The notes under the pieces: generated by a model
What the model was told of the DNA's origin: nothing
Seen by the model: the letters and a program-made list of their open reading frames with translations, nothing else
Databases searched by the model: none
Shown: positions 1 through 13,343 of the stretch, one piece after another
Position numbering within the stretch: the first letter of the stretch is position 1
How the letters are laid out: each line of letters starts with the position of its first letter
Position numbers and translations under genes: made by a program
Source: a virus
Direction: 5' to 3' (one strand)
IMG/VR virus record: IMGVR_UViG_3300036791_001038
Coordinates: 13,233-77,232 of that record
DNA: 64,000 bases

Positions 1-1
1 C

Positions 2-3000
2 AACCTGTCCGGCAAGTCTGAGGGCGAGGCCGTTGAGCAGCACGGCCCGCACCTCTGCACCCATTGCTTCAAGTCCGCTCCCACCGAGTGGAAGCGGGAT
101 CCGGCCGAGACGCGCGCCGAGGAGAAGAAGAAGTCGGGTGAGTATTGCGAGGGCGGCAAGGCCAGCAGCTACCCCGACGCCGAGGAGCGCGCCCGGCGCA
201 AGGCCACCCATCCGCAAGGCAAGGTCAAGCTAGAGCCCGGCGAGGCCATGTACACCGGCCAGCGGGGTGGCTACCAGGGCCGTTGCCCCACCTGCAAGAC
301 CATCCAAAAGGTCAAGAACTCCGGCGAGTTCTACCAGCACAAGCCGCCCGAGGTACCCAAGGAGGAGAAGCCCAAGGTCGAGCGGCCGGTGCTACCTGAT
401 CCTGGTAAGGGGCTCAAGACCCATCTGCGGCAGAAGCATCAGATGAATACCCATGATTTCGACTCGTACCAGCAGTATCAACCGGATAAATCGCTGGATC
501 AGATCCATAGTGATCTGCATGAGAAATACGATAACAATCAGCATGCACCGAACAATCACACCCATGGTGGGTCTGCGCCGCCTGCCACCACGGTCATGAC
601 CCCGCCCAGGGAAGGCTCCAGGAGGGGCCTAAGAGCCTTTGTAGGGGCTGATGCCTCGGGGATAACGGTGGCCGGTCTCGCGGTGGTGGCCCGCGACACC
701 GGCCGGGTGCTGATGCTGCAGCGCCTGCTCGATGGTAAGGATCCGGCCGGGGGTACCTGGGAATGGCCAGGCGGTCATATCGGTCAGGACGAATCACCTA
801 TCGAGGGAGCCATCCGCGAGTGGAAGGAAGAAGTCGGTCAGCATCTCCCTGAGGGCCATGTAGGGGGCTCCTGGGACTCCAAGGGGATGTATCAGGGATT
901 CGTGTACGTCATCCCCTCTGAGGACGACATCGAGGTCTACAGCGGCAAGCGACCGGTCACCAATCCCGATGATCCCAAGGGCGACAATCCCGAAGCCGTG
1001 GCCTGGTGGGATCCCAAGGACCTGCCCGACATGCCCGCTCTGCGCCCTGAGTGCAAGACCACCGACTGGTCGCTGTTCAAGCCCGCTGCTATTGCGAAGG
1101 TGGCCGTCGAGGAGAAGCCCTCAGAGCCCTGGTATCACAGCGCCGACGACTATGAGGGCGCAGTAGGTGACCGTACTCATATCACCCGTAATGTGCAGAT
1201 GGATCTACCCACCCATCTGGTCGCTCATATGCCCGGTGTGATGGATGAGCGTCCTGGCGAACACCGTAACATGCAAGGTGATAAGTGGGAGGACTTCAAG
1301 AATGACATCTCTGCCAACGGCATCAAAAACCCGCTCTTTATCACGGTGGATCACGGCCAGCGACCCAGGCTGTCTGAGGGCAACCACCGCAGAGACGCGG
1401 CGATTGAGCTAGGCCTCAAGCACGTCCCGGCCCAGGTGCGCTACTACGGTCACGCCGAGCGGGACAGCGACCTGGAGGACCAGGCCCGCAAGTGGTGGAC
1501 CCACAATCCCCAGCATCTGCCCAGAACCTCGGCTAGAGCGTCCAGGATCAAATGGGATCAGGTCGAACAGGATTACGAACATTCAGGACCGAGTGATTAC
1601 GGAGGTGCTTACTGGATAACCCCCTCCGGTAAGAACTTGAATGTCGGTGAATACCATTCCAATCTCTTCAAACATCCGGCCGTTGGTTACAATCCGAATG
1701 CTAAGCCGGAGTATGCCGATGAGGATTCCCGTCATGTGCTGGCTCAGGGTGGGGTGCGGATCATGCATCTGCCCAACTCCGCCTATGGCAATCGCATAGC
1801 CGTCGAGCATCACCATCCTCTCACCGAGGGCCAACAGAAGACCCTGATCAGCTTCGTGCATCGCTCCCATCCTGATTCCCTGGACTATGACGGCCCGAAT
1901 GGCTATCGGCAGTTCGACTTTCCCACTGGGGCCGATGTCCGTAAGCATCTGTCCAAAGAGGCCGCCTACGACCTCCTCGGTCCAGGCAAAGGCCACTACT
2001 TCGAGCCGGTGGAGGAGGGCAGCGACTGGTGCGCCGTCTGCGGTCACGATCGCCGGGTGACCAAGCATCCCCTGCCCAAGCAAGCGGCCGCCGAGCGTCA
2101 ATATCTCTATCACACTTCTCCCGTTCATAATCGAGCGAGTATTACCGAGAAGGGTCTGCTTCCTAATCAACCAGGTCATGAAGACGAACCTGAGCTTCCT
2201 AAGGGAGTCTATCTTGACTCTGATGAAAAGATGGCTCTCGATACCGGTAATGATTATGGAGAAGATGTATGGAAGGTGGATGTCACTGGATTAAAACATC
2301 ATGTTGATCCTTATTGGGAGGGAGTTGCTCATCGACCTAATACCAGTCATTACGTCAAAGGAGCCATCCCACCTCATCGTGTGACTCTACACCGGCCTGC
2401 ATCATGGCATGAATGCTCTGATAAGTCTTGTCACCTTGCAAGGATCGGGCTGCGGGCCTTTGTGGCGCTGGTGGTCCCCAAGACCTTCTTTCATGGCACC
2501 ACTGAAGAACTGCAGCCTGGAGATGTCCTGCATCCCGGCAATGAGATGGGGCTGAAGACACACCCTCAACTGCACAAGTGGCGGGGGGATCATGTCTGGG
2601 CCACCCCCGAGGAGGCCGGGGCCTGGGGCTACTCCGAGCAGGCCGAAACCAGCCGGGGCACCCACCACGTTTATGGACCAACGGTCGGTGATCGCCCCCG
2701 GCCTCGGGTCTATGAGGTCGAGCCCATGGGACCGGTGCAGAAGCGCCGTCGTCTGAGTCCCTTCGACCCCGAAGAATACACCATGCCCTCGGCCAGGGTC
2801 CTGCGCTCCATCGACATCCCCCACCCCGAGGTGCCGTTACCCACTCAGGGCAAGCCCTCCGGTGGGGGTATGCAGGGTCGTCTCCCCGGCGAGAAGAGTT
2901 GGGAGAACTGGAAGACCCTGGAGCCCGACGCGGCCGATCTCTCCGAGCATTGGGAACTGTCCCGGCGTCGTCATCCAGAGGCCTGGGCGGCGGGTGATAA

Positions 3001-6000
3001 GGAAGAGCCAGCCCCAGAGACCGATGAGCATCAGCAGAAGCTCTTCGCGGCTCGAATGGCCGCGCTCCGGGCCTTCATAGCCGTCAACAGTTCAGATGAA
3101 GTACCGCCACCCATGGGGGAGTCGCCCATCCCCGAGGGCCATGTGCGGCTGTTCCACCAGACCTCGGTGAAGCAGGCCGAGTCGGTGCGCCAGCACGGGC
3201 TGACCATGGAGCATGCTCGCGATGTCAGCGGGCCACGCGGCGTCTGGGCCAGTCATGGCACCCGTTTCTACGGCGAAGGCGATGAGCATGCCACCGTGGA
3301 GTTCCACGTCCCTTACGACGAGCTACGCGACACGGCCGGAGGTCAGTCCCCGCATCGGCATCAGCCTCAGGAGGACTGGGAGAAGAGTACTCACCACACC
3401 CTGATTATCCCCCGCTCTATCAAGCCGCATGAGATCTCCGCTATCCATCTGCCCTGGCACAATCGTTATCACTACTTCCATGACAACGGCATGACTGATG
3501 ATGTGAAGAAGGGTGAGTACGACAACCTGTCCGACATGAAGGACTACGGCCCGGCCATCGACAAGATCAAGCACGAAGCTCTGCGTCATTTGGCCATGCA
3601 AGCCGAGGACGAGGTACCGCCCCGGCTCGGGACCGCGCCCATCCCCGAGGACCACGTCCGGCTCTACCACCACACCTGGTCAAGGAACGTTCCCGGCATC
3701 CGGGAGCATGGCCTGCTGGCCGAGATGGGCCAGGGCGACAGCGGCAAGGGCTACGGCAACGAGGCATCAGCGGGGGTATGGGCCGCCAGTCAGCATCCCG
3801 AGCCTGATCCCCAGAGTGACCGGCATGTGATCGAGTTCCACGCCCATCCAAGAGAGATCGATGTCAACGGCCCCTCTCCTGGCCAGGACATCCATAAATG
3901 GCAGCAGGGCGATCACAACGTCCTGATGCGGGGCAGTGTGCCGAAAGAGAACATCCTGGCTATTCACGCCCCTTGGCATACCGCTTATCATCAGATCTCC
4001 GAGGATGCCCGCGACCGGGAGGATGTGAAAGGCGGCAAGCTGGACTGGGTCCACAACGATCCCAGCATGAAGGAGATCAGCAAGGCCGTCCACAAGATCC
4101 AGTCCGAAGCCAAGAAGACCCGCAACACCGAGAAGCCTCAGCAATGCAACTGGTGCAAGCAGCCCGCCACCAAGTCCATGCTGTGGGCCGAGGGTATGGG
4201 GTACATCCCCACCTGTGACAAGCATGAGGCAAAGACCCGTGACCACATCGAGAACACCAATGATGACGAGGTCGTTGCCATCCACCAGATCAAGCAGGGA
4301 GCCAAGCAGCCCTATATCGGCAAGGGCTGGTGGCTGACGCCCGAGGGCAAGAAGATCGGGGTCTACGACCACTACGAGACCACTCCGGGGATGGCCCGGC
4401 AGATGATTCGTCCTCACATGGCCGAGAGTGGTCAGGTCCGGGTCCGTAGCTTCAACAATCAACTCAACGTGCAAACGTCGCGGCCGTTCACCGATGCTCA
4501 GCGCCAGAGCTTGCTGCTGGATGCCGATAAGCATTCCCGCATGTTCGTGGACGTGCTACACCCCGACACCGAGGAGTCCATCCACTCCGAGTCCGGTGGC
4601 CCCGAGGACGCCGATCGCATGCTGGCCCGAGCCCACCGGGCCGCCATACCCCACACGGCCGCCCTGACTCTCCTGGCCGATCAGCCCTACGCCGGAGGTC
4701 ACACCTTCCAGTTCATCAAGGCCACCCCCAAGGTGATGGGTGGTAGCTCCCTGCACGAACTGCGGGCCTATCCCGAGGGCGAGTCCAAGCGCTACTCCGG
4801 GTCGCTGCGATGGTCATACAAGTCTGGTGAGATTGCCGGTATCGACGTGGACAAGGACCAGCAGCGTCAGGGCCTGGCCACCGAGCTACTGGGCCGGGCA
4901 CGCGATATCGCCGCCACCACCCGAGGGGTGATCGCTCCCAAGCACTCCGATCAACGCACCAACGAGGGAGAGGCTTGGGCGCGCTCGACCGGCGATCGGC
5001 TGCCCCGGCGGCTCACCGGACTGGGGGTGTTCGTGGCCGCTTTTGGACAACCACAGCTATTCGATCCCGGTAGTGGTGGCCATGAGCATCTACCCAATCC
5101 TCGGGGTGGGCTGGACTGGCATCACGGCACTCCGCATCACTTCGAGAGCTTCGAGGAGGAGCGCCCGGAAGAAGACGATCCCTATGGCGGGTATGACTTC
5201 GAGACCGGCGAGAAGTTCAAGCAGCCCCATTGGAACACCCACCTGGGCCAGCACTGGACCTCCCTGCCGGGCGTGGCCGAGCATTTCGCCAAGGGCCAGT
5301 ACGGTCAGTATGGGGAAGGCAAGGGTCATGTCATCACCGCTAACCTGGGCGTAAAGCACCCCAAGGACTACAAGCTCGAATCCCACATGGACAAGGAGGC
5401 CTTCGAGCATGCCTGGGACGGGCATGATCCCCACGATTACCACGATGAGTTCTGCCATAACCCGGAGCATCGAGACGACCCCGACGAGGAGCATTTCGAT
5501 GACGAGCCCTACCACTACAACGACCAGCATGAGCGCGGCGACGAGGTGGACCGCCAGGTCCAGGCCCGCTACCGGGACCGGGAGCAGCAGGGCGAGTGGC
5601 TGAGCCAGCATCCCGACTCGGGCTCCCTGGCCGAGAGCTTCAAGGACAAGGTCCGCCAGGAGGGTCATGACGGCATCACCTACGGCAACGAGCTAGAGGG
5701 GCCGCACGGCCACCAGTGCGCCATCACCTTCGATGAGCATCAGATCCACAACCCCCGCCGCCGGGCTCTGGGCAAGCTGGCGGTCGAGGACTACGACACC
5801 CTGTACCACATCACCGATCAGCACCACTTCGCCCTGGACCCTGAGCATGCCCCCCAGGACAACGCCTTCGCCATCCAGGACCGCTCCCACTACAAGGGCC
5901 TATACGCGACCAAAGACCCTGACACCTGGCGGGCGCAGGGCTACCACCGGCCTTACGTGGCCGAACTGCACGTCCCCCATGGGCTGGCCCAGCAGGAGCG

Positions 6001-7813
6001 CTGGCACGGGGAGAGCTTCATTCCGGCCGAGCATTTCGACAAGGTCAAGGTCAACCGGGTCATCCCCTTCGATGCTCATCAGCGTGAGAAGTGGGGTGAG
6101 CCCGGCACCATCGAGAGCTACCACGGCACCCACTACCAGACCAACCAGCCGCTCAAGAAGAAGCCGGGCTGGGAGTCATCGGACTACTACGAGGCGGATG
6201 AGAACGAGCCTGCAACCAAGGACGTGCGCGACTTCACCCCGAAGGAACACACCCGTCATCTCAAGCGGCTGCGCGAGTACCTGCACCACGTCCAGGGTTG
6301 GGGCTGGAACGAGTTCAACCAGAAGCATGAGCATGTCGGCATAGGCGAGGACGAACAAGACGAAGAGGGCATGCCCATCCGGCGGGACCAGAAGGGCCAG
6401 CCCATGACCCGAGATCGCTATGCAGCCAAGACCGGGCCGATCTACTACCACGGCCATGGCCGGGGAGGAGCCCGAGCCGCGACCGGCGATCCCGAGTGGG
6501 ACGACAACCTCTTCGTCAGCCACGATCCCGAGGTGGCCAAGCTGTACGGCCCCAAGCTGGATCGCATCCAGATGGCCCCCGACACCAAGGTGGCCCGCCA
6601 TGAACACTGGCTGGGCGCGCAGAGGCCTGACATTGCCCTCAATCTCCTGCGTAAGGCCAAGGCTAAGAACGCCGATGTGATCGAGTTCCACAAGCCTCAT
6701 GACTTCGTCGGTCACATCATCCTGAACAAGGACAAGATCGTCAGCCGGGAGCCCTATGATCCCGGTCATACCGCCATGGCCGATCGAGGCGACTACGGCA
6801 TGGAGCATTCCCCCCACCTGGAGGGACCGGCCTTGCACGAACTGGGGCACAGCTATCCCGACATCTACGACCATCCCGAGTACTACGGCTCCATGCATGA
6901 ACGGCCCGGCCGGGAGTCAGCCCGCGCCCTGAAGAGGGCCAAGGGCATCGGCCCCGACGACCAGGTCAGCATCTACCGGGCCGCTCCGCACGGGGTCACC
7001 ACCTTCAACCACGGCGACTGGGTCACCCTCTCCCCCAGCTACGCCCAGCAGCACAGCCGCCACCCCACCGACGAGAGCCGGGACATGCCCATCTACAAGG
7101 CCCAGGTGGCGGCCAAGCACGTCCACTGGGACGAGAACGACATCAACGAGTTCGGCTACTCCGGCCCCGAGGTACCCGCCACCAAGCACCTACCGGGTGG
7201 TCCTGACGCGCCGCGCCTGGCTGCCTTCGTGGCCGCCCTGGACCCCGGCCAGGTCTCCGAGGCATCCCCGGAGGAGTTCCATCGCCGCTTCTCCGAGGCT
7301 ATGGAGGGCAGCCCCTTCGTCCACCATGTGACCAACCACACTCCCGAGGAGATCCGCTCGGGCGGCATGCGCCCGCTCACCACCAACGGTGGCGACACCG
7401 GGGTGCTGGTGCATGACCACGGCGACGGCCGTATCGAGGCCACCGGCCTGTACAACCGCTCCAAGGTCAAGGGCGCGGGGGTCGATCTGCTCAAGCATAC
7501 CATGGAGCATCATGGCGTGAACTACGTCGAAGCGTATGGACCTAGACTTCCCCAGTTGTACCGACGAGCAGGCTTCCAGACCACCGAGAAATATCGCTTC
7601 GATCGTGAGCAGGCTAACCCTGGCTGGGATTTTCGCCAGTTCGATTCGCCTAGCTATCACATCATGCACCCACGTAACACTCAGAAGTCTGGTAAGGTGA
7701 TCTCATGGCCTTCGACCGCCAGCGTTCCATTCCTGTTCCCATCAACGAGCCTGAGCCCTCCGAGGGGGCTATCAGCCTTTGGGATGTTGACTGGGACGAC
7801 CCCGAGCAGGTAG
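2..7813 (+). CDS. Giant polyvalent multi-effector protein (NUDIX, ParB-like, multiple ADP-ribosyltransferase-fold, GNAT and Zn-finger domains); 5'-truncated by the window edge
   Basis: The frame is open from base 2 (NLSGKSEGEAVEQHGPHLCTHC...) through the ATG at 248 to the stop at 7813. Motifs: Nudix box GGHIGQDESPIEGAIREWKEEVG; ParB-like GIKNPLFI..EGNHRRDAA; repeated (Y/F/W)-H-x-T ART motifs; GNAT motif A VDKDQQRQGLATELL. Confidence 0.85.
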   Translation, partial: NLSGKSEGEAVEQHGPHLCTHCFKSAPTEWKRDPAETRAEEKKKSGEYCEGGKASSYPDAEERARRKATHPQGKVKLEPGEAMYTGQRGGYQGRCPTCKTIQKVKNSGEFYQHKPPEVPKEEKPKVERPVLPDPGKGLKTHLRQKHQMNTHDFDSYQQYQPDKSLDQIHSDLHEKYDNNQHAPNNHTHGGSAPPATTVMTPPREGSRRGLRAFVGADASGITVAGLAVVARDTGRVLMLQRLLDGKDPAGGTWEWPGGHIGQDESPIEGAIREWKEEVGQHLPEGHVGGSWDSKGMYQGFVYVIPSEDDIEVYSGKRPVTNPDDPKGDNPEAVAWWDPKDLPDMPALRPECKTTDWSLFKPAAIAKVAVEEKPSEPWYHSADDYEGAVGDRTHITRNVQMDLPTHLVAHMPGVMDERPGEHRNMQGDKWEDFKNDISANGIKNPLFITVDHGQRPRLSEGNHRRDAAIELGLKHVPAQVRYYGHAERDSDLEDQARKWWTHNPQHLPRTSARASRIKWDQVEQDYEHSGPSDYGGAYWITPSGKNLNVGEYHSNLFKHPAVGYNPNAKPEYADEDSRHVLAQGGVRIMHLPNSAYGNRIAVEHHHPLTEGQQKTLISFVHRSHPDSLDYDGPNGYRQFDFPTGADVRKHLSKEAAYDLLGPGKGHYFEPVEEGSDWCAVCGHDRRVTKHPLPKQAAAERQYLYHTSPVHNRASITEKGLLPNQPGHEDEPELPKGVYLDSDEKMALDTGNDYGEDVWKVDVTGLKHHVDPYWEGVAHRPNTSHYVKGAIPPHRVTLHRPASWHECSDKSCHLARIGLRAFVALVVPKTFFHGTTEELQPGDVLHPGNEMGLKTHPQLHKWRGDHVWATPEEAGAWGYSEQAETSRGTHHVYGPTVGDRPRPRVYEVEPMGPVQKRRRLSPFDPEEYTMPSARVLRSIDIPHPEVPLPTQGKPSGGGMQGRLPGEKSWENWKTLEPDAADLSEHWELSRRRHPEAWAAGDKEEPAPETDEHQQKLFAARMAALRAFIAVNSSDEVPPPMGESPIPEGHVRLFHQTSVKQAESVRQHGLTMEHARDVSGPRGVWASHGTRFYGEGDEHATVEFHVPYDELRDTAGGQSPHRHQPQEDWEKSTHHTLIIPRSIKPHEISAIHLPWHNRYHYFHDNGMTDDVKKGEYDNLSDMKDYGPAIDKIKHEALRHLAMQAEDEVPPRLGTAPIPEDHVRLYHHTWSRNVPGIREHGLLAEMGQGDSGKGYGNEASAGVWAASQHPEPDPQSDRHVIEFHAHPREIDVNGPSPGQDIHKWQQGDHNVLMRGSVPKENILAIHAPWHTAYHQISEDARDREDVKGGKLDWVHNDPSMKEISKAVHKIQSEAKKTRNTEKPQQCNWCKQPATKSMLWAEGMGYIPTCDKHEAKTRDHIENTNDDEVVAIHQIKQGAKQPYIGKGWWLTPEGKKIGVYDHYETTPGMARQMIRPHMAESGQVRVRSFNNQLNVQTSRPFTDAQRQSLLLDADKHSRMFVDVLHPDTEESIHSESGGPEDADRMLARAHRAAIPHTAALTLLADQPYAGGHTFQFIKATPKVMGGSSLHELRAYPEGESKRYSGSLRWSYKSGEIAGIDVDKDQQRQGLATELLGRARDIAATTRGVIAPKHSDQRTNEGEAWARSTGDRLPRRLTGLGVFVAAFGQPQLFDPGSGGHEHLPNPRGGLDWHHGTPHHFESFEEERPEEDDPYGGYDFETGEKFKQPHWNTHLGQHWTSLPGVAEHFAKGQYGQYGEGKGHVITANLGVKHPKDYKLESHMDKEAFEHAWDGHDPHDYHDEFCHNPEHRDDPDEEHFDDEPYHYNDQHERGDEVDRQVQARYRDREQQGEWLSQHPDSGSLAESFKDKVRQEGHDGITYGNELEGPHGHQCAITFDEHQIHNPRRRALGKLAVEDYDTLYHITDQHHFALDPEHAPQDNAFAIQDRSHYKGLYATKDPDTWRAQGYHRPYVAELHVPHGLAQQERWHGESFIPAEHFDKVKVNRVIPFDAHQREKWGEPGTIESYHGTHYQTNQPLKKKPGWESSDYYEADENEPATKDVRDFTPKEHTRHLKRLREYLHHVQGWGWNEFNQKHEHVGIGEDEQDEEGMPIRRDQKGQPMTRDRYAAKTGPIYYHGHGRGGARAATGDPEWDDNLFVSHDPEVAKLYGPKLDRIQMAPDTKVARHEHWLGAQRPDIALNLLRKAKAKNADVIEFHKPHDFVGHIILNKDKIVSREPYDPGHTAMADRGDYGMEHSPHLEGPALHELGHSYPDIYDHPEYYGSMHERPGRESARALKRAKGIGPDDQVSIYRAAPHGVTTFNHGDWVTLSPSYAQQHSRHPTDESRDMPIYKAQVAAKHVHWDENDINEFGYSGPEVPATKHLPGGPDAPRLAAFVAALDPGQVSEASPEEFHRRFSEAMEGSPFVHHVTNHTPEEIRSGGMRPLTTNGGDTGVLVHDHGDGRIEATGLYNRSKVKGAGVDLLKHTMEHHGVNYVEAYGPRLPQLYRRAGFQTTEKYRFDREQANPGWDFRQFDSPSYHIMHPRNTQKSGKVISWPSTASVPFLFPSTSLSPPRGLSAFGMLTGTTPSR

Positions 7814-7944
7814 CCGCGCTCAAGGCCCAGACCGAAGCCGAGCTTGAGGCCGAGAACCCCGAGGATTGGGCCGCCATGACGCCCGAGCAGAGGGAGAACT
7901 CCTGGAAGGCGGCCCTCGCTCAACTCGGCGTACACGGCGTCTGA
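7705..7944 (+). CDS. Small acidic protein (79 aa), overlapping the 3' end of the giant ORF
   Basis: SD-like AAGGTGA upstream of the ATG; phage-like codon usage; the stop lies just before the promoter motif at 7946. Confidence 0.6.
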   Translation: MAFDRQRSIPVPINEPEPSEGAISLWDVDWDDPEQVAALKAQTEAELEAENPEDWAAMTPEQRENSWKAALAQLGVHGV

Positions 7945-7945
7945 G

Positions 7946-7981
7946 CCTGTCGGGCGCTCCCTGAGCGCGCCGAAGTGGTGA
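7946..7981 (+). promoter_or_regulatory. Putative phage late promoter, copy 1 (CCTGTC-N19-CGAAGnnnTGA)
   Basis: Same motif and spacing at 10472, 14248, 14706, 31073 and 36400; the ATG at 7983 follows almost immediately. Confidence 0.7.
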
Positions 7982-7982
7982 G

Positions 7983-10217
7983 ATGTCTCTGGTCGCCACC
8001 GCCAAAGAGCAGACCACGGTGCCGCCCGAGGTGGACACCATGCGGGAGGAGATCTGCCCGGTCTGCGGCTCGGACGACTCCTACGTGGGTGACAAATGCT
8101 CGGTGTGCGGCTTCGAGAAGCCCCCGTCGCTGTTCATGGACCCCGACACCTCCCTGGCCCAGAACGTCAACCTGCGCCAGCAGGACCAGGAGGACGCCAA
8201 CGACGACGGGGCCGGGGATCTGCAGTGCCCCGAGTGCGGGGAGACCTTCTCCTCGGCCGAGGCCCTGAACCAGGCCGGGGACCCCCACCTGGCCCCGGCC
8301 GCCCAGACCATCCCGGCCGAGCAGGACCTGGTCGCTCCCGAGGAGGGCTCAGAAGAGCCGGAGGGGCCGCTGGAAGCCCCCGAGGACGAGGATGAGAACC
8401 AGATGGCCCCAGGCCCGCCTGAGGACGCCATGGGCGTTCCTGGGCAGCCTGAGCCCCCCGAGGAGGACCAGGAGGAGGAGCTACCACCGGGTCAGCCCGA
8501 GGACCAGGACGAGGTAGCTCCCGGCCAGGAGGGACCAGAGCCGCCCGAGGGGGAGCTTGACGGCGAGGAGATCCCCGAGGGGGCCGAGGAGGAAGAGGAG
8601 CCTGAGCAGGCCGAGCAGGAACAGGTCGATCCCGAGGCCATGGCCGAGCAGCAGTATGCCGCCGATCAGCAGGGCATGGCCGACACCGGCTACGAGGAGG
8701 GCGACATCTGCCCCAACTGCGGTCAAGGCATCCTGCAGGAAGTCGGCCCGGAAGGCCCCATCGTCCCGCCCGAGACCAGCAGCCCGCGCACCGCCCCTGA
8801 CTCCGGTGACCAGGGCCAGTCACCCTTCCCGGTCAGCGACGAGGACGAAGAGGATGAGGGTGACCAGGAAGAGGCACCCGGCGCAGACGAGGCCGAGGAG
8901 TCCGGCGGTCAGTCCGACATAGCCCCCGAAGACCAAGACGACGGGGATGAGGACCAGGAGCCAGACGATGAGGACGGGGACGAGGATGAGGACGAGGATG
9001 GCATCCCTCCCTGGGTGAAGAAGAAGACAAGTTCACATGAACTACCAGCCATAGGAAGGAGCCCCAGTACCATGGCCAACCGCACCCGCACCAACGGTCG
9101 CGTCACGCCCCGACAGCCCCAAACCACCACCCGCACCGCCAACACCGCTCAGCCCGAGCCCACGCCCCGGACCTCGGTGCGGACGGCCCTGCACGCCTCG
9201 CTCAACCAGCAGGCCCATGTGCTGCGCCAGATGACCGCGGCCTGCCAGCAGGAGCGCATCCTGCGCCTGGCGGCCGAGGCCCGCATCACCACCTTGGAGC
9301 GCCAGATGCTGCGCTTCGCCCAACTGGCCGGGGCCGATCACGATGCCGAGCTTCGCTCCCTCAACGAGGAGGGCTACCGGACCCACACCGCCCTCATGGC
9401 CCGTGCCGCCTCCCTGCATGACACCACTCGGCACATTGCCGACCAGCGCGACCCCGGTCAGCCCGTGCCCGAGCCCGCCCCGGCTCCTCCGGTGGTGACC
9501 GAGCAGGAGGCGGCCCAGCCCGCCGGGCGGGACGACGTGACCCAGCTTGGGGCCACTCCGGTGGCCGACGTGTCCGCCGACGCCACCCTGGCCGTGGACG
9601 AGCCCTACGGCACGGCTGCCTTCGAGCCCCTCAACCTCAACCAGGTGGACGTGACCGCCCCGGTCCAGAACACCCAGGGCCATCTGCCCCCCGAGCAGAC
9701 CATCATCCCCGTCGAGGTGCGCGTCGGTGACCCCGACGATCCCCAGCCCAGCTTCGGTTGGACCATCGACGGTGGCAACCCCTCCGGTCAGACCGGGGGC
9801 TCGGTGGGCTCAGGGGCTCCCACGGGAGCCGGGCGCGGCGCACCAGGGGTCCAGCCCGGCACCACCGCGGCCCGCAACGACGGCCAGGTCTCCCTGGGAG
9901 CCCTGCGGCTGGCTCGGCTCCGCATGCAAGCTGGTATTGCCCCGGCCAACCAGGACGACCTGTCCATCGCCGCGGCCATCCAGGACAACCCGGCCCTGAC
10001 CGTCGAGGCCATCAACACCGAGATCCGCACCCTGACCCAGGTGTTGTCGGCCCAGCCTCAGGCCCAACAGCGCACCGCCGCCGCCAGCCGTCGCCTGGTC
10101 CCCCGTGCCGCGCCGGGGGCCGAGCCCATGCCCTCTCTGGCCCCGAGCGGGGAAGGCCCCATTCGATCCCACGCTTCTACCGGGCAAGTTACGGCAGATG
10201 AGATGCTCTTCGAATAG
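7983..10217 (+). CDS. Capsid scaffolding/maturation protein with N-terminal Zn-ribbons and a long acidic region
   Basis: CPVCG/CSVCG/CPECG/CPNCG motifs, a D/E-rich tract and a helical C-terminal half; lies two genes before the major capsid gene. Confidence 0.65.
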   Translation: MSLVATAKEQTTVPPEVDTMREEICPVCGSDDSYVGDKCSVCGFEKPPSLFMDPDTSLAQNVNLRQQDQEDANDDGAGDLQCPECGETFSSAEALNQAGDPHLAPAAQTIPAEQDLVAPEEGSEEPEGPLEAPEDEDENQMAPGPPEDAMGVPGQPEPPEEDQEEELPPGQPEDQDEVAPGQEGPEPPEGELDGEEIPEGAEEEEEPEQAEQEQVDPEAMAEQQYAADQQGMADTGYEEGDICPNCGQGILQEVGPEGPIVPPETSSPRTAPDSGDQGQSPFPVSDEDEEDEGDQEEAPGADEAEESGGQSDIAPEDQDDGDEDQEPDDEDGDEDEDEDGIPPWVKKKTSSHELPAIGRSPSTMANRTRTNGRVTPRQPQTTTRTANTAQPEPTPRTSVRTALHASLNQQAHVLRQMTAACQQERILRLAAEARITTLERQMLRFAQLAGADHDAELRSLNEEGYRTHTALMARAASLHDTTRHIADQRDPGQPVPEPAPAPPVVTEQEAAQPAGRDDVTQLGATPVADVSADATLAVDEPYGTAAFEPLNLNQVDVTAPVQNTQGHLPPEQTIIPVEVRVGDPDDPQPSFGWTIDGGNPSGQTGGSVGSGAPTGAGRGAPGVQPGTTAARNDGQVSLGALRLARLRMQAGIAPANQDDLSIAAAIQDNPALTVEAINTEIRTLTQVLSAQPQAQQRTAAASRRLVPRAAPGAEPMPSLAPSGEGPIRSHASTGQVTADEMLFE

Positions 10218-10535: not shown

Positions 10536-11171
10536 GTGATTCGTGTCCCCATCTCTCGGTCGTACATCAAGCGGACGATCCGGGTCAACTACGGCTGGAC
10601 CCAGGCCACCCCCAAGAGTGGCTACCTCGATCCCGCTTGGAACCGCTCGGTGCCCATCTGGCCTGGCATGGCCTTCATGAGGACCTCCGGCGCGTCTGGC
10701 TACACCAGCCCGTACCAGAGCTTCGGAGCCACCTCGGGTGGTCCCAACTACACCCTGCTCAACGCCACCGGGGTACCGGCCGGGTTCGTGGGCAACTACA
10801 TCGGCGGCGAGGGCATCGATGAGCTTCTCGACACCGGCCTGTCCGCCCTGGCCGTGTGGGTCCTCGACCCCGACGCCGAGTTCGAGATCCTGGCCCCGGC
10901 CTTCGACGCCAACCTGGTCTGGACCGACCCCGGCAACGGCACCGACGCCCTGGTCTATGCCCGCACCTCCAATCTGGCGGGGGCGGTGGGCCTCAACGGT
11001 CTGGGTGGGGCCATCGCGGCAGGCTCCTACACCGGCACCTACGGCCTGCAGGGCCAACTGGTGACCACGGCCGACGCCAACAAGTCCACCCAGCCGGTGG
11101 CCCGCCTGGTGGCCGTCAACTCCAACCTGTCCATCACCATCGGTGGCCTGGCCGTCCGCTCGGGCTTCTGA
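10536..11171 (+). CDS. Capsid decoration/minor head protein
   Basis: Immediately upstream of the major capsid gene; SD GGAGG; KRTIR..Y...QATP and IDEL...LAVWVLDPDAEFEILAPAFD segments resemble the equivalent Bxz1-like gene (recalled). Confidence 0.7.
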   Translation: MIRVPISRSYIKRTIRVNYGWTQATPKSGYLDPAWNRSVPIWPGMAFMRTSGASGYTSPYQSFGATSGGPNYTLLNATGVPAGFVGNYIGGEGIDELLDTGLSALAVWVLDPDAEFEILAPAFDANLVWTDPGNGTDALVYARTSNLAGAVGLNGLGGAIAAGSYTGTYGLQGQLVTTADANKSTQPVARLVAVNSNLSITIGGLAVRSGF

Positions 11172-11214: not shown

Positions 11215-12207
11215 ATGACTCTGGTTGCCAACGTTGCGGGGCTAGCTCCAAAGCGGGCCAAGAAGTCCGACGACTACGTCGCTGAGATCCTCAAGCGGCG
11301 CGGCGGGGATGGCAACGTCCCGTCGCTGACCCATGAGGCCAAGGTCCGCAAGCTCTCCCTGATCCTCCAGGACGAGGTCAACGGCATCCGCCGTCTGGGC
11401 GTGGGCATGGTCGGACCCATCCAGTTGAAGCTGCGCTACCAGGGCATCACCCGCAACGTGCTGATCGAGGACCCAGTCACCCCCGGCACCCCGGTCGAGT
11501 ACGACGTGTGGGACGACCTGGGCCAGGCCTACCTCATGAGTGGCACCGAAGGCGAGGTCCGGGTCACCCCCTTCGAAGGCAAGCGCCTGCCCATCCGGTT
11601 CTGGCGTATCGCCTCCCGTCCGGCCATCCGCAAGGAGGACCTGTTCTACCTCCGCATCAACGCGGTGGAGCAGGCCCAGGACGAGACCAAGCAGGCCATC
11701 ATGAAGCAGGAGGACTCCCGCCTCCTGGTCATCATCCAGGCCGCCCTCACCGACTACGCCTCCAGGCCCGACCATGTCGTCACCCCCAACCACACCGTCT
11801 ACGAGGCCAGCGGCTACTTCACCCCGCAGTCCATGTACACCGCGGTGGCCCAGTCCGACATGCACGAACTGCCAGCCGGGCGCATGCTGGTCAACCCCTT
11901 CGACTACCGGGACTTCTTCCGCTGGGACATCAACACCACCGGCTGGGCCTTCAAGGACCGCATTGTGGCCGGGGAGCAGATCCAGACCTTCGGGGAGTTC
12001 AACTTCCAGCGCTCCATCATGGTCCCCCAGGGCCAGATGTACCTGCTGCCCAACCCGGACTTCCTGGGCGTGTTCCCGGTGCTGTACTCGCTCGACGTGG
12101 AGGAGAACCACAACGTCGAGGCCTTCTGGAAGGGCTGGGTTTTCGATGAGATGGTCTCCATGGCCATCCTCAACCCCAGGGGCATCACCACCGTCCTCAA
12201 GGGCTAG
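11215..12207 (+). CDS. Major capsid protein (Bxz1-like)
   Basis: SDDYVAEI, GPIQLKLRYQGITRNVL, RWDINTTGWAFKD and FLGVFPVLYSLDVEE closely match my recollection of cluster C phage capsid proteins; SD AGGAG. Confidence 0.92.
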   Translation: MTLVANVAGLAPKRAKKSDDYVAEILKRRGGDGNVPSLTHEAKVRKLSLILQDEVNGIRRLGVGMVGPIQLKLRYQGITRNVLIEDPVTPGTPVEYDVWDDLGQAYLMSGTEGEVRVTPFEGKRLPIRFWRIASRPAIRKEDLFYLRINAVEQAQDETKQAIMKQEDSRLLVIIQAALTDYASRPDHVVTPNHTVYEASGYFTPQSMYTAVAQSDMHELPAGRMLVNPFDYRDFFRWDINTTGWAFKDRIVAGEQIQTFGEFNFQRSIMVPQGQMYLLPNPDFLGVFPVLYSLDVEENHNVEAFWKGWVFDEMVSMAILNPRGITTVLKG

Positions 12208-12234
12208 ACGCCAGGCCCCGGAGGGGGTGCTGAC

Positions 12235-12489
12235 GTGGTGACCACCGACAAGGCCGCCCAGGTGGCCGCAGAGCCTGAGGAACCGCTCGAACCCTCCTGG
12301 TATCGCACCGGCTTCCCCATTATCCGGCGCGTGGTCATCTTCCTACTGGGGATGGCCATCATGATCGACGCCCTGTGGGATCGCCAGTACGTGGTCCCGG
12401 AGTTGATCATCGGCATGATCATGGTCGGTGTACTTCCGCTCGATGAAGTCCTAAAGTCCCTGACGAGCAAACGCCGTAAGGGTGGCTGA
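12235..12489 (+). CDS. Small membrane protein with 2 TM segments (holin-like)
   Basis: Two hydrophobic segments and a basic C-terminus (KRRKGG). Confidence 0.55.
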   Translation: MVTTDKAAQVAAEPEEPLEPSWYRTGFPIIRRVVIFLLGMAIMIDALWDRQYVVPELIIGMIMVGVLPLDEVLKSLTSKRRKGG

Positions 12490-12724
12490 AGGGACCGCGA
12501 TCGCCGCCGTACTCACCGGCACCGCTGCGGTCTTAACGGCTTGGGCGGCTGTCAAGCGAGCCAAATCCAAGGGGAACGAGGAGTGTGAGGAGAATCTGTC
12601 CTTAGCTCGAAAGGAAGCTGAGGCTAATGCCGCCGAGGTCCATCGGCTGAGAATGGCGCATCCAGAGGACTATGAGGAGCCTGATCACAAAGAAGAAGTA
12701 GAAGATGAGAACAAGGACAAATAG
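12482..12724 (+). CDS. Membrane-anchored coiled-coil protein
   Basis: N-terminal hydrophobic helix followed by a charged helical segment. Confidence 0.55.
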   Translation: MAEGTAIAAVLTGTAAVLTAWAAVKRAKSKGNEECEENLSLARKEAEANAAEVHRLRMAHPEDYEEPDHKEEVEDENKDK

Positions 12725-13343
12725 AGGAGCTATTACCTCGAATATGCTCTTGGGTTTGTCGGTCATCTTCATCGTCCTAGCGGTGGTATTCGGCTTGTTG
12801 ACCGGGAGTGGGGCGTCAACAAAGAACGGACCACCGGGATCGACCGGGCCACCTGGATCGACCGGACCAGCAGGACCACCAGGCAGTCCCGGCAAGCAGG
12901 GACCTCAGGGGCCATCGGGGGCAACGGCCACCACCCTGATCACCGAGGGCGGGCGAGTGGTAACCGCCACCGTCCCTGGCGCGACGGGATCTACTGGAGC
13001 AGCCGGATCAGCAGGTACGTCAGGAGGGACAGGAGCGACAGGAGCAACAGGAGCGACAGGATCGGGTGGAGCAACAGGTACAGCAGGAAATACTGGAGCC
13101 ACCGGGGCACCAGGTGCCCAAGGCCTACCAGGCCCAGCGGGAGAGCGAGGGGCCACGGGCGCTCAGGGCTCACCTGGTCCATCCGGGTCTCATGGCGCGA
13201 CAGGAGCTACCGGGCCGCCAGGGCCGCGAGGACCGCCCGGAGTGGCCGGTACGTTCGAGTGTCCGAGCGGCTCAAGGCTGGAGAAGATCACCTTAAATGG
13301 CAAAGGTGGGCAGACCACCCTCTGGGCTTGTGTGATCGGATGA
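12705..13343 (+). CDS. Membrane-anchored collagen-like protein
   Basis: TM helix, two Gly-X-Y runs and a C-terminal C-x22-C domain. Confidence 0.75.
   Translation: MRTRTNRGAITSNMLLGLSVIFIVLAVVFGLLTGSGASTKNGPPGSTGPPGSTGPAGPPGSPGKQGPQGPSGATATTLITEGGRVVTATVPGATGSTGAAGSAGTSGGTGATGATGATGSGGATGTAGNTGATGAPGAQGLPGPAGERGATGAQGSPGPSGSHGATGATGPPGPRGPPGVAGTFECPSGSRLEKITLNGKGGQTTLWACVIG

Follow-up and report, generated by a model that had tools for sequence, protein, structure and literature searches.

A protease-led multi-domain effector polyprotein predicted in the head module of a Bxz1-like soil actinophage

Polyvalent proteins join 2-15 domains in one chain, and ADP-ribosyltransferases (ARTs) are their commonest modifying enzymes. 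A 2017 survey proposes that they are processed by a zincin-like MPTase, and places assemblin-like peptidases in them 'always at the C termini' (PMC5512222). Head-packaged ARTs, as well as Nudix domains fused to MuF, portal or a capsid-processing serine peptidase, have also been described already, in a 2022 survey of NAD+-ADPr systems (PMC9503650). Here we describe a giant open reading frame (ORF) of 3,240 amino acids that occupies the 5' end of a 64,000-nucleotide stretch of viral DNA (bases 13233-77232 of the 77,232-nt IMG/VR virus record IMGVR_UViG_3300036791_001038, with an estimated completeness of about 54%), hereafter the window. We read it as a protease-led polyvalent effector polyprotein encoded in the head module of a Bxz1-like soil actinophage. 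The domain anatomy of the ORF we hold with high confidence, and towards the full model, with packaging, self-cleavage and injection, we lean by a modest degree.

Like the polyvalent proteins of both reports, the giant ORF unites in a single chain effector domains of several unrelated kinds (ART, GNAT, ParB-like, peptidase) and is encoded by a phage beside virion or late genes; those proteins are predicted to be packaged and injected (PMC5512222, PMC9503650). It differs from the survey's description in having about 18 modules instead of 2-15, in carrying its predicted assemblin-like peptidase at the N-terminus instead of the C-terminus, and in having no zincin-like MPTase (PMC5512222). It also differs in combining eight ARTs of at least five families in one chain, and in a conserved motif between modules, of which we found no equivalent in the accessible polyvalent literature (PMC5512222, PMC9503650).

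Unlike in polyvalent proteins, the modules here called MA, MB, MC and ARTx get no Pfam ART model. To our knowledge, polyvalent phage proteins are known from comparative genomics only, and this ORF, which combines a candidate protease with ten candidate sites and well-defined module borders in a single chain, offers a testable model of their processing. The first-pass annotation of this DNA, made from its letters, had called a head protein with so many ARTs uncharacterised. This was overstated, as packaged ARTs, Nudix-peptidase fusions, the polyvalent class and metagenomic giants with multiple ARTs or GNATs are known, but the number and diversity of ARTs are new. New as well are the N-terminal protease lead, the conserved linker, the ART folds for families that Pfam does not see and an antisense HNH gene lying in frame. 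The protease, the linker motif as a recurrent system and the HNH gene, three features that matter for the mechanism, could not be seen by an annotation confined to the window.

In phages of the T4 gp21 and phiKZ types, a prohead serine protease trims passengers in the procapsid, the ART Alt among them, and these are injected with the DNA. The passengers come from separate genes and have targeting propeptides and Glu-based cleavage sites. Compared with T4 Alt/gp21 and with phiKZ/SPN3US (SPN3US: PMC5694885, PMC10052503), protease and passengers here form one chain and the candidate site is hydrophobic. MuF polymorphic toxins and portal fusions are similar in that a domain for head assembly bears enzymes as passengers, VIP2-type ARTs and Nudix among them; their carrier, however, is MuF or a portal, usually with one C-terminal effector, whereas here it is a protease with about 17 passengers (PMC5576092, PMC7302621). 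Giant ORFs made of fused head genes, whose products are presumably processed, are also known from other actinophages: from cluster EE, with protease-scaffold-capsid fusions, and from cluster EK Microbacterium phages, with a gene of >4,400 aa that is 'likely processed, virion associated'. Unlike the present ORF, those are structural fusions or an uncharacterised giant, and the accessible text reports no multi-ART cargo or linker motif for them (PMC7302621).

The giant reading frame and its N-terminal protease domain

Window positions 2-7813 are one open frame, which continues upstream to a GTG at contig position 11323. The start thus lies 1,911 nt upstream of the window, and the first 637 amino acids are encoded outside it, at contig 11323-13233. 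The first-pass annotation had seen a single ORF of more than 2600 aa open past the 5' edge, which holds with a larger total. It had also allowed that separate genes might have been fused by misassembly. We consider this very unlikely, because an independent assembly agrees and two near relatives carry equally large, similarly built ORFs. A Logan contig of 12,251 nt, from a soil metagenome that is the probable source run, covers all 9,723 nt of the ORF with 0 differences and an even depth of about 30. Among the sequencing runs listed for this DNA there was no RNA run. The relatives, which come from other samples, are P0064 (a 2,796-aa ORF, N-terminally cut, 75-95% identical) and L005 (a 3,116-aa ORF with a protease 82-85% identical), both with a similar giant layout. 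A chimera, or separate genes joined by sequencing errors, might be suspected in a metagenome contig whose plus frame crosses an antisense gene; against this stand the independent assembly, the two relatives and contigs of two other studies that cover most bins, and we give such an artefact almost no weight. A megablast of window 1-8000 against phage records gave no match.

The ORF is led by a domain (aa 1-218, upstream of the window) which, judged from sequence, is a member of the head-maturation protease family, with His77 and Ser135 as its putative catalytic residues. This reading draws on the PHROG family, on the gene position, on how homologues are annotated and on a conserved His/Ser pair. 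For residues 30-210 the matches are phrog_2774 (E 1e-66) and phrog_18299, 'head maturation protease' (E 2.8e-22). Across nine relatives, with identities as low as 48%, neither His77 nor Ser135 varies, and the same is true of a Cys/Cys/Cys/His cluster. The spacing of the His/Ser pair, 58 residues, is like that of T4 gp21. Homologues are annotated as prohead or head-maturation proteases in the jumbo phages Dickeya JA11, Xanthomonas PhiXhv-16 and Erwinia pEa_SNUABM_5, and Bacillus phage G gp19 and phiRSL1 likewise match the domain. In a language-model Atlas the nearest named clusters were Peptidase_S77 (0.92) and S78 (0.91), which we treat as leads only. Both the sequence family and the conserved His/Ser pair thus point to an S77/S78-type, assemblin-like prohead protease. 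This answers a check proposed in the first-pass annotation, namely whether a MuF or a prohead-protease domain leads the ORF in the upstream sequence.

By this N-terminal domain the closest isolates are the Bxz1-type cluster C mycobacteriophages. The Bixzunavirus protein ET08 gp86 (1,286 aa, 'hypothetical protein') has an N-terminal protease domain about 50% identical to the one here and the same position, directly upstream of the gp87 and major head protein genes, and the gene order agrees with ET08 gp86-gp87-gp88. When only the window part of the ORF (P0001) was used in tblastn against phage records, gp86 was not retrieved.

Eight ART-fold modules and their companions

The chain was cut by linker sites and homologue envelopes, and hidden Markov models (HMMs) built from 210 related proteins and loci were compared by hhalign. 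About 17 modules follow the protease, and the chain's modules, about 18 in all, come from 10 or more families. Eight of them are ART-fold modules from at least five sequence families, with evidence of different strength: a predicted fold for four, family homology to a folded member for one and profile links for three. The estimate of about eight ART folds in the first-pass annotation is thus supported for all eight, and its motifs lie where it had put them: LYHTS at nt 2105, FFHGT at 2486, RLFHQT at 3146, RLYHHT at 3659, WHHGT at 5117, LYHIT at 5801, YYHGH at 6443, IYRAAP at 6971 and the Nudix box at 770.

ART1, ART3 and ART4 form one family, ARTx (hhalign 99.9-100%). ART3 (3083..3577, plus strand like all modules) carries RLFHQT...VWAS...VEF; ART4 (3599..4099) is its paralogue (hhalign 100%, HMM i-E 1e-59), and ART1 (1991..2446) is a short member with a Zn knuckle and LYHTS...GVYL (ART3 HMM i-E 4e-11, hhalign 99.9% to ART3/ART4). 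Across 39 aligned members, R, H, G and E do not vary (RLYHxT...VWAS...VEF). Its sequence links to known ARTs are weak, with DarT1 8baq at E 0.02, DUF7002 in 8 of the 39 and DarT in one. The AlphaFold model of ART3 reached a predicted local distance difference test (pLDDT) score of 88.6 and a predicted template modelling (pTM) score of 0.84, and nearly all of its top-50 Foldseek rows were KptA/Tpt1, PARP10/14/15 or exotoxin A (E from 0.02). The model predicts a split beta-sheet ART fold for ART3, which would extend to ART1 and ART4 by homology.

For ART2 and ART5 the evidence is sequence-based; a mixed alignment misplaced Arr-like sequences owing to long multi-domain proteins. ART2 (2468..3061), Arr-like and so placed near the rifampin-ART family, scores 17.7 bits on Arr-ms (PF12120; cut-off 25). 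All five stand-alone homologues match Arr-ms and nothing else, two of them above the cut-off (36.1 and 31.2 bits). This suggests that ART2 is related to Arr, which is a weaker statement than Arr membership or action on rifampin. ART5 (5039..5764), with the WHHGT motif and an acidic His/Asp-rich insert, appears related to ART-PolyVal and Arr. It aligns with ART2 (hhalign 87-88%, E 3e-6), and its three stand-alone homologues all match ART-PolyVal (PF18760) below the cut-off of 31.2 bits, the best with 24.8 bits (E 4e-5) over profile positions 10-133 of 140.

The remaining three are MA (5786..6430; LYHIT...GLYAT...YVAE), MB (6431..6769; YYHG...FVSHD...EFH, a rare family) and MC (6770..7213; IYRAAP...GDWVT.S...EFGY). 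None has a Pfam match, and sequence and profile searches of the PDB gave nothing for MA and MC and only spurious designed-repeat and oxidoreductase rows for MB. Folded together from a balanced alignment, they reached a mean pLDDT of 78.8, with the cores of MA and MC mostly above 80 and MB more mixed. A VIA structure search with this model retrieved mostly ART-type chains, at separate ranges for each domain. MA, the weakest of the three, matched TreTu (4.3), Scabin (4.2), BC2332 (4.2), pertussis S1 (4.1) and PARP10/13/16. Foldseek against the PDB was consistent with this, and against BFVD it returned phage 'PolyVal ADP-ribosyltransferase', 'large polyvalent protein associated domain', MuF-C and N4-type vRNAP entries. 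The models thus predict an ART fold for all three modules. Outside ARTx, the ART motifs (H-Y-E / R-S-E) were read by eye.

MC belongs to a common stand-alone phage protein family, phrog_2579, and more than 394 viral loci encode an MC-type protein. PHROGs and RefSeq label this family 'ParB C-terminal domain', for example in Mycobacterium phage Cjw1 gp127 (NC_004681, 70274-70597). Since MC models as an ART-like fold, this label looks wrong. Several widespread, unannotated phage protein families would in this way be labelled as ART folds, the Cjw1 gp127 family among them. We rejected MC as a member of ART-PolyVal itself, as in P0062 and P0063 the Pfam domain adjoins the MC-like part and does not lie on it.

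A fold of this type does not by itself make a transferase. Most of these modules might instead bind NAD+ or ADP-ribose or act as NADases, serving as sponges or decoys against NAD-based defence signals, or they might degrade NAD+ as RES- or MbcT-like enzymes. The best structural matches of MB include the RES, NatT and MbcT entries 9r35, 8qnl and 6fkg, which are NAD+-degrading toxins, and ART1 has Lys in the column of the ARTx family's Glu. On the other hand, ARTx as a family keeps its invariant R, H and E, relatives of ART2 pass the Arr transferase model, and the structural matches of MB and MC include true transferases as well (ParT, exotoxin A, diphtheria toxin, TreX and Arr). We consider it highly doubtful that most of the modules are not transferases.

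The NUDIX hydrolase (647..1120) is firm at the sequence level: PF00293 matches with E 1e-14 and 55.1 bits (cut-off 21.1), PDB matches are of the MutT type, and the Nudix box (GX5EX7REUXEEXGU), read directly at nt 770 (aa 894-916), is intact. It is most similar to the Nudix domains found in Arthrobacter portal-MuF fusions and in a cyanophage 'capsid maturation protease'. The ParB/Srx-like module (1130..1489), with a GxxRxxA-type box at nt 1376, stays below the PF02195 cut-off (E 0.0026, 18.2 vs 26.3 bits) but is supported by the PHROG ParB-like family phrog_4715 (E 4e-5), by TIGR00180 (E 0.014) and by its homologue P0014, which carries PF02195.

Acetyltransferases of the GNAT type are supported by sequence at two places. 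GNAT1 (aa 381-483, upstream of the window) passes Pfam with 37.5 bits; GNAT2 (4688..5017) falls just short on PF00583 (E 8e-4, 20.1 vs 20.7 bits) and aligns with GNAT1 (hhalign 99.7%). The C-terminal module 'GNAT3' (7235..7765) belongs to a family of viral and actinobacterial proteins of about 195 aa (phrog_2563 E 1.9e-4). It had no Pfam, PDB or named Atlas family match and only 14-19% in hhalign to GNATs, and its identity as a GNAT is unproven. The first-pass annotation was therefore right about the NUDIX domain; it had named two GNATs, of which the one at about 4700-5000 is supported and the one at about 7250-7670 is unproven, and its ParB/Srx-like call at about 1200-1460 has PHROG support but stays below the Pfam cut-off.

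The other modules are m02 (aa 491-845, its C-terminal part at 2..625), which is Cys/His-rich, matches phrog_2433 (E 3.6e-43) and phrog_15500 and has no Pfam match; m05 (1490..1990) and m11 (4307..4687), which are paralogues (m11 HMM i-E 6e-28, hhalign 99.8%); and Zn10 (4100..4306), a small Cys/His Zn-knuckle module that forms its own family of 14 domain instances and matched no named family. A sequence and profile search of the PDB with the whole protein found NUDIX and GNAT and nothing else, and a word-indexed homologue search with aa 1125-1455 gave no match.

The recurrent linker and the fate of the polyprotein

At ten module borders we found the motif (basic)-G-L-R-A-F-V-A-(acidic/Ser) or a degenerate form of it. 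Linkers 1 (aa 374) and 2 (aa 484) lie upstream of the window. The others are at 626..646 (GLRAFVG), 2447..2467 (GLRAFVA), 3062..3082 (ALRAFIA), 3578..3598 (ALRHLAM, degenerate), 5018..5038 (GLGVFVA), 5765..5785 (ALGKLAV, degenerate), 7214..7234 (RLAAFVA) and 7766..7813, where linker 10 (GLSAFGM) is followed by an 8-residue tail and the stop codon. The strict pattern occurs 7 times in the giant ORF and the loose one 10 times, against means of 0 and 0.015 in 2,000 protein shuffles, and the other 150,000 six-frame residues of the contig hold 3 loose matches. Every match in the ORF falls between independently defined HMM envelopes. Since the linker codons vary at synonymous sites, it is the peptide and not a DNA repeat that is conserved, and on the same grounds we rejected the linkers as DNA repeats for recombination. 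About 10 copies were found in L005, where the modules are partly different and differently ordered, and 6 by the loose pattern in P0064. With its hydrophobic x-A/small character the linker may be closer to the herpesvirus assemblin consensus, (V/L/I)-x-A|S, than to Glu-based sites. A complex prediction from the protease alignment and an alignment of nine linker stretches gave a score of 0.02, which is no evidence either way.

Two stretches elsewhere in the window resemble the linker. The cement-protein ORF (10536-11171) has one loose match, GLSALAV at 10836, the only one inside a gene other than the giant ORF, and it may be due to chance. The scaffold-like protein has a conserved amphipathic motif near its C-terminus (9894-9941), ALRLARLR here and IRLAKLRV in relatives, which is loosely similar to the linker and could be a coat-binding or cleavage element.

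The scaffold-like protein is encoded by a separate ORF of 744 aa (7983..10217, plus strand), beyond a 169-nt gap and in a different frame from the giant ORF. It has Zn ribbons, an acidic/Pro-rich centre and the conserved C-terminal helix motif. By BLASTP it is homologous to the C-terminal part of protease-led or cargo-bearing ORFs in L006, L007, L011, L012, P0121 and P0047; the layout is protease-MC-ART2-scaffold in L011 and NUDIX-ART5-MC-scaffold in P0047. ET08 gp86 gave no BLASTP match to it. Because more distant relatives have protease, cargo and scaffold-like protein in one ORF, this lineage couples its cargo physically to two components of procapsids, the protease and the scaffold.

In our model the polyprotein would enter the procapsid with or via its protease domain, together with the scaffold. 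Its own protease would then cut at the linkers and release single enzymes, which would ride in the capsid and be injected with the DNA. In the host they may ADP-ribosylate, acetylate or cut different targets, and signals that are nucleotides or derive from ADP-ribose may be cleared by the NUDIX. The linkers also mark joints for module gain, loss and reshuffling. Packaging taken alone we regard as probable, because a prohead protease leads the ORF and relatives fuse cargo to the scaffold-like protein. The first-pass annotation had proposed a capsid-packaged and injected arsenal; its fold calls and its head context were right, and packaging, injection and NAD+-dependent activity keep the status of predictions.

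Several points weigh against the model. Cleavage, packaging and injection are predictions from sequence and context. The scaffold is a separate ORF in this genome, so the polyprotein's way into the procapsid is not given by fusion. Relatives with 63-70% identical proteases do not have the GLRAFVA motif, and the linker, if it is a site, is clade-specific. Neither the scaffold-like protein nor the major head protein contains the motif, and the protease would therefore need other sites for capsid maturation. Pfam sees the protease domain only as a 0.086 match to Peptidase_S78_2 in the ET08 homologue, and a sequence and profile search of the PDB with this domain gave nothing useful. For the ARTs, NAD+ binding and NAD+-dependent transfer are predictions from sequence, and the lysine of ART1 counts here as well.

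The protein could also be packaged and injected as one giant chain, or be cut once behind the protease, with GLRAFVA as a structural joint, such as a short hydrophobic strand by which modules dock onto one another, onto the scaffold or onto the inner face of the capsid. The hydrophobic motif is unlike the Glu-based sites of prohead proteases of the T4 and phiKZ types, it is missing in relatives with similar proteases, and the scaffold-like protein has its loosely similar helix motif ALRLARLR. There are giant virion proteins that are cut little or not at all; according to the survey, polyvalent proteins of plasmids are transferred whole, and cleavage of P1 DdrB yields a single 76-kDa piece (PMC5512222). 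However, the motif always stands between domains and never inside a fold envelope, with basic residues upstream and acidic or Ser-rich ones downstream, and one copy lies 8 residues from the C-terminus, where there is nothing to join. The same survey holds that processing is needed where the targets of a polyvalent protein lie in different places (PMC5512222). We consider the uncut or once-cut chain unlikely.

A further alternative is that the protein is not a virion passenger. It might be a late product that undergoes processing in the cytoplasm and whose enzymes target the dying host or superinfecting competitors, or it might chiefly provide bulk for the core or scaffold, to be degraded and expelled as the head matures. 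The gene does lie in a late operon, and the scaffold-like protein to which relatives fuse the cargo belongs to a class normally removed from heads. Intact catalytic motifs in NUDIX and several ARTs argue against mere filler, as do the many distinct enzyme families maintained across hundreds of related proteins, and the linkage of phage ARTs to head genes shows a statistical association with packaging contexts (PMC9503650). We find it improbable that the protein stays out of the virion.

A packaged polyprotein that is cut into single enzymes also permits a bolder reading. The linkers may be at once the cleavage sites of the protease and the standard joints of an exchangeable cassette array, an 'effector integron' at the protein level. 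Its modules, including the four ART families that Pfam does not know, would be swapped between phages, released singly in the capsid and injected as a tailored anti-host or anti-defence set. We put this forward tentatively, as a possibility short of a favoured view. If true, it would answer how polyvalent proteins are processed in phages that have no zincin-like MPTase.

Module turnover, the antisense HNH gene and neighbouring genes

A metagenome search with aa 1320-2519 returned 793 proteins at E up to 1e-3. The arrays include a 3,303-aa chain with about 13 GNAT matches and chains with five ARTx copies. P0064 has an additional ARTx module exactly at linker 3 and is without MB. Contigs of two other soil studies carry variants without ART1 up to linker 4, without m05, or with 399 additional nt between NUDIX and ParB (in L004 at nt 3981-4375, 3433-3863 and 3015-3025). 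These variants are module-level polymorphisms in wild populations. By sequence comparison, module gain and loss is frequent among near relatives, in some cases at linkers.

An intact HNH_3 endonuclease gene of 147 codons lies antisense inside the giant ORF, in codon register, flanked by the protease, which ends in ...KRGL, and by linker 1 (contig L002, 11977-12420, minus strand, 813 nt before the window start; PF13392 34.8 bits, E 1.3e-8, cut-off 24.8). In the plus frame it reads as a filler of about 148 residues (aa 219-366). The insert is absent from P0064, which has 10 residues at this site, and from L005, which has about 30. In the contig of run X2, nt 654-1164 are replaced by 88 letters and the insert is absent, while the contig of run X3 covers it continuously. 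The insert is thus polymorphic in nature.

We tried the explanation that the insert is spliced out as an intron and dropped it, as a search with Rfam at E up to 1 gave neither a group I nor a group II intron in its surroundings. The three codons that would give stops on the opposite strand are all missing from the HNH frame. With a local frequency of 0.3-1.1% for these codons, their absence is expected in about one third of genes of that length, and selection among insertion events suffices to account for the open plus frame. The read-through HNH gene provides a precedent for a homing gene housed within an essential head gene with neither an intron nor an intein.

The head-module context given by the first-pass annotation was right, as genes for a cement protein and a major head protein lie downstream of the giant ORF. 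The ten ORFs upstream of it had no informative PHROG names. Beyond the scaffold-like ORF follow the capsid cement/decoration protein (10536..11171, plus strand; PF23968 E 4.6e-24) and the major head protein (11215..12207, plus strand; phrog_2522 E 2e-93). Directly after the major head gene comes a collagen-repeat, collagen-like fibre protein (12705-13343; PF01391 E 5e-19), at the position of the 'head fiber' in ET08.

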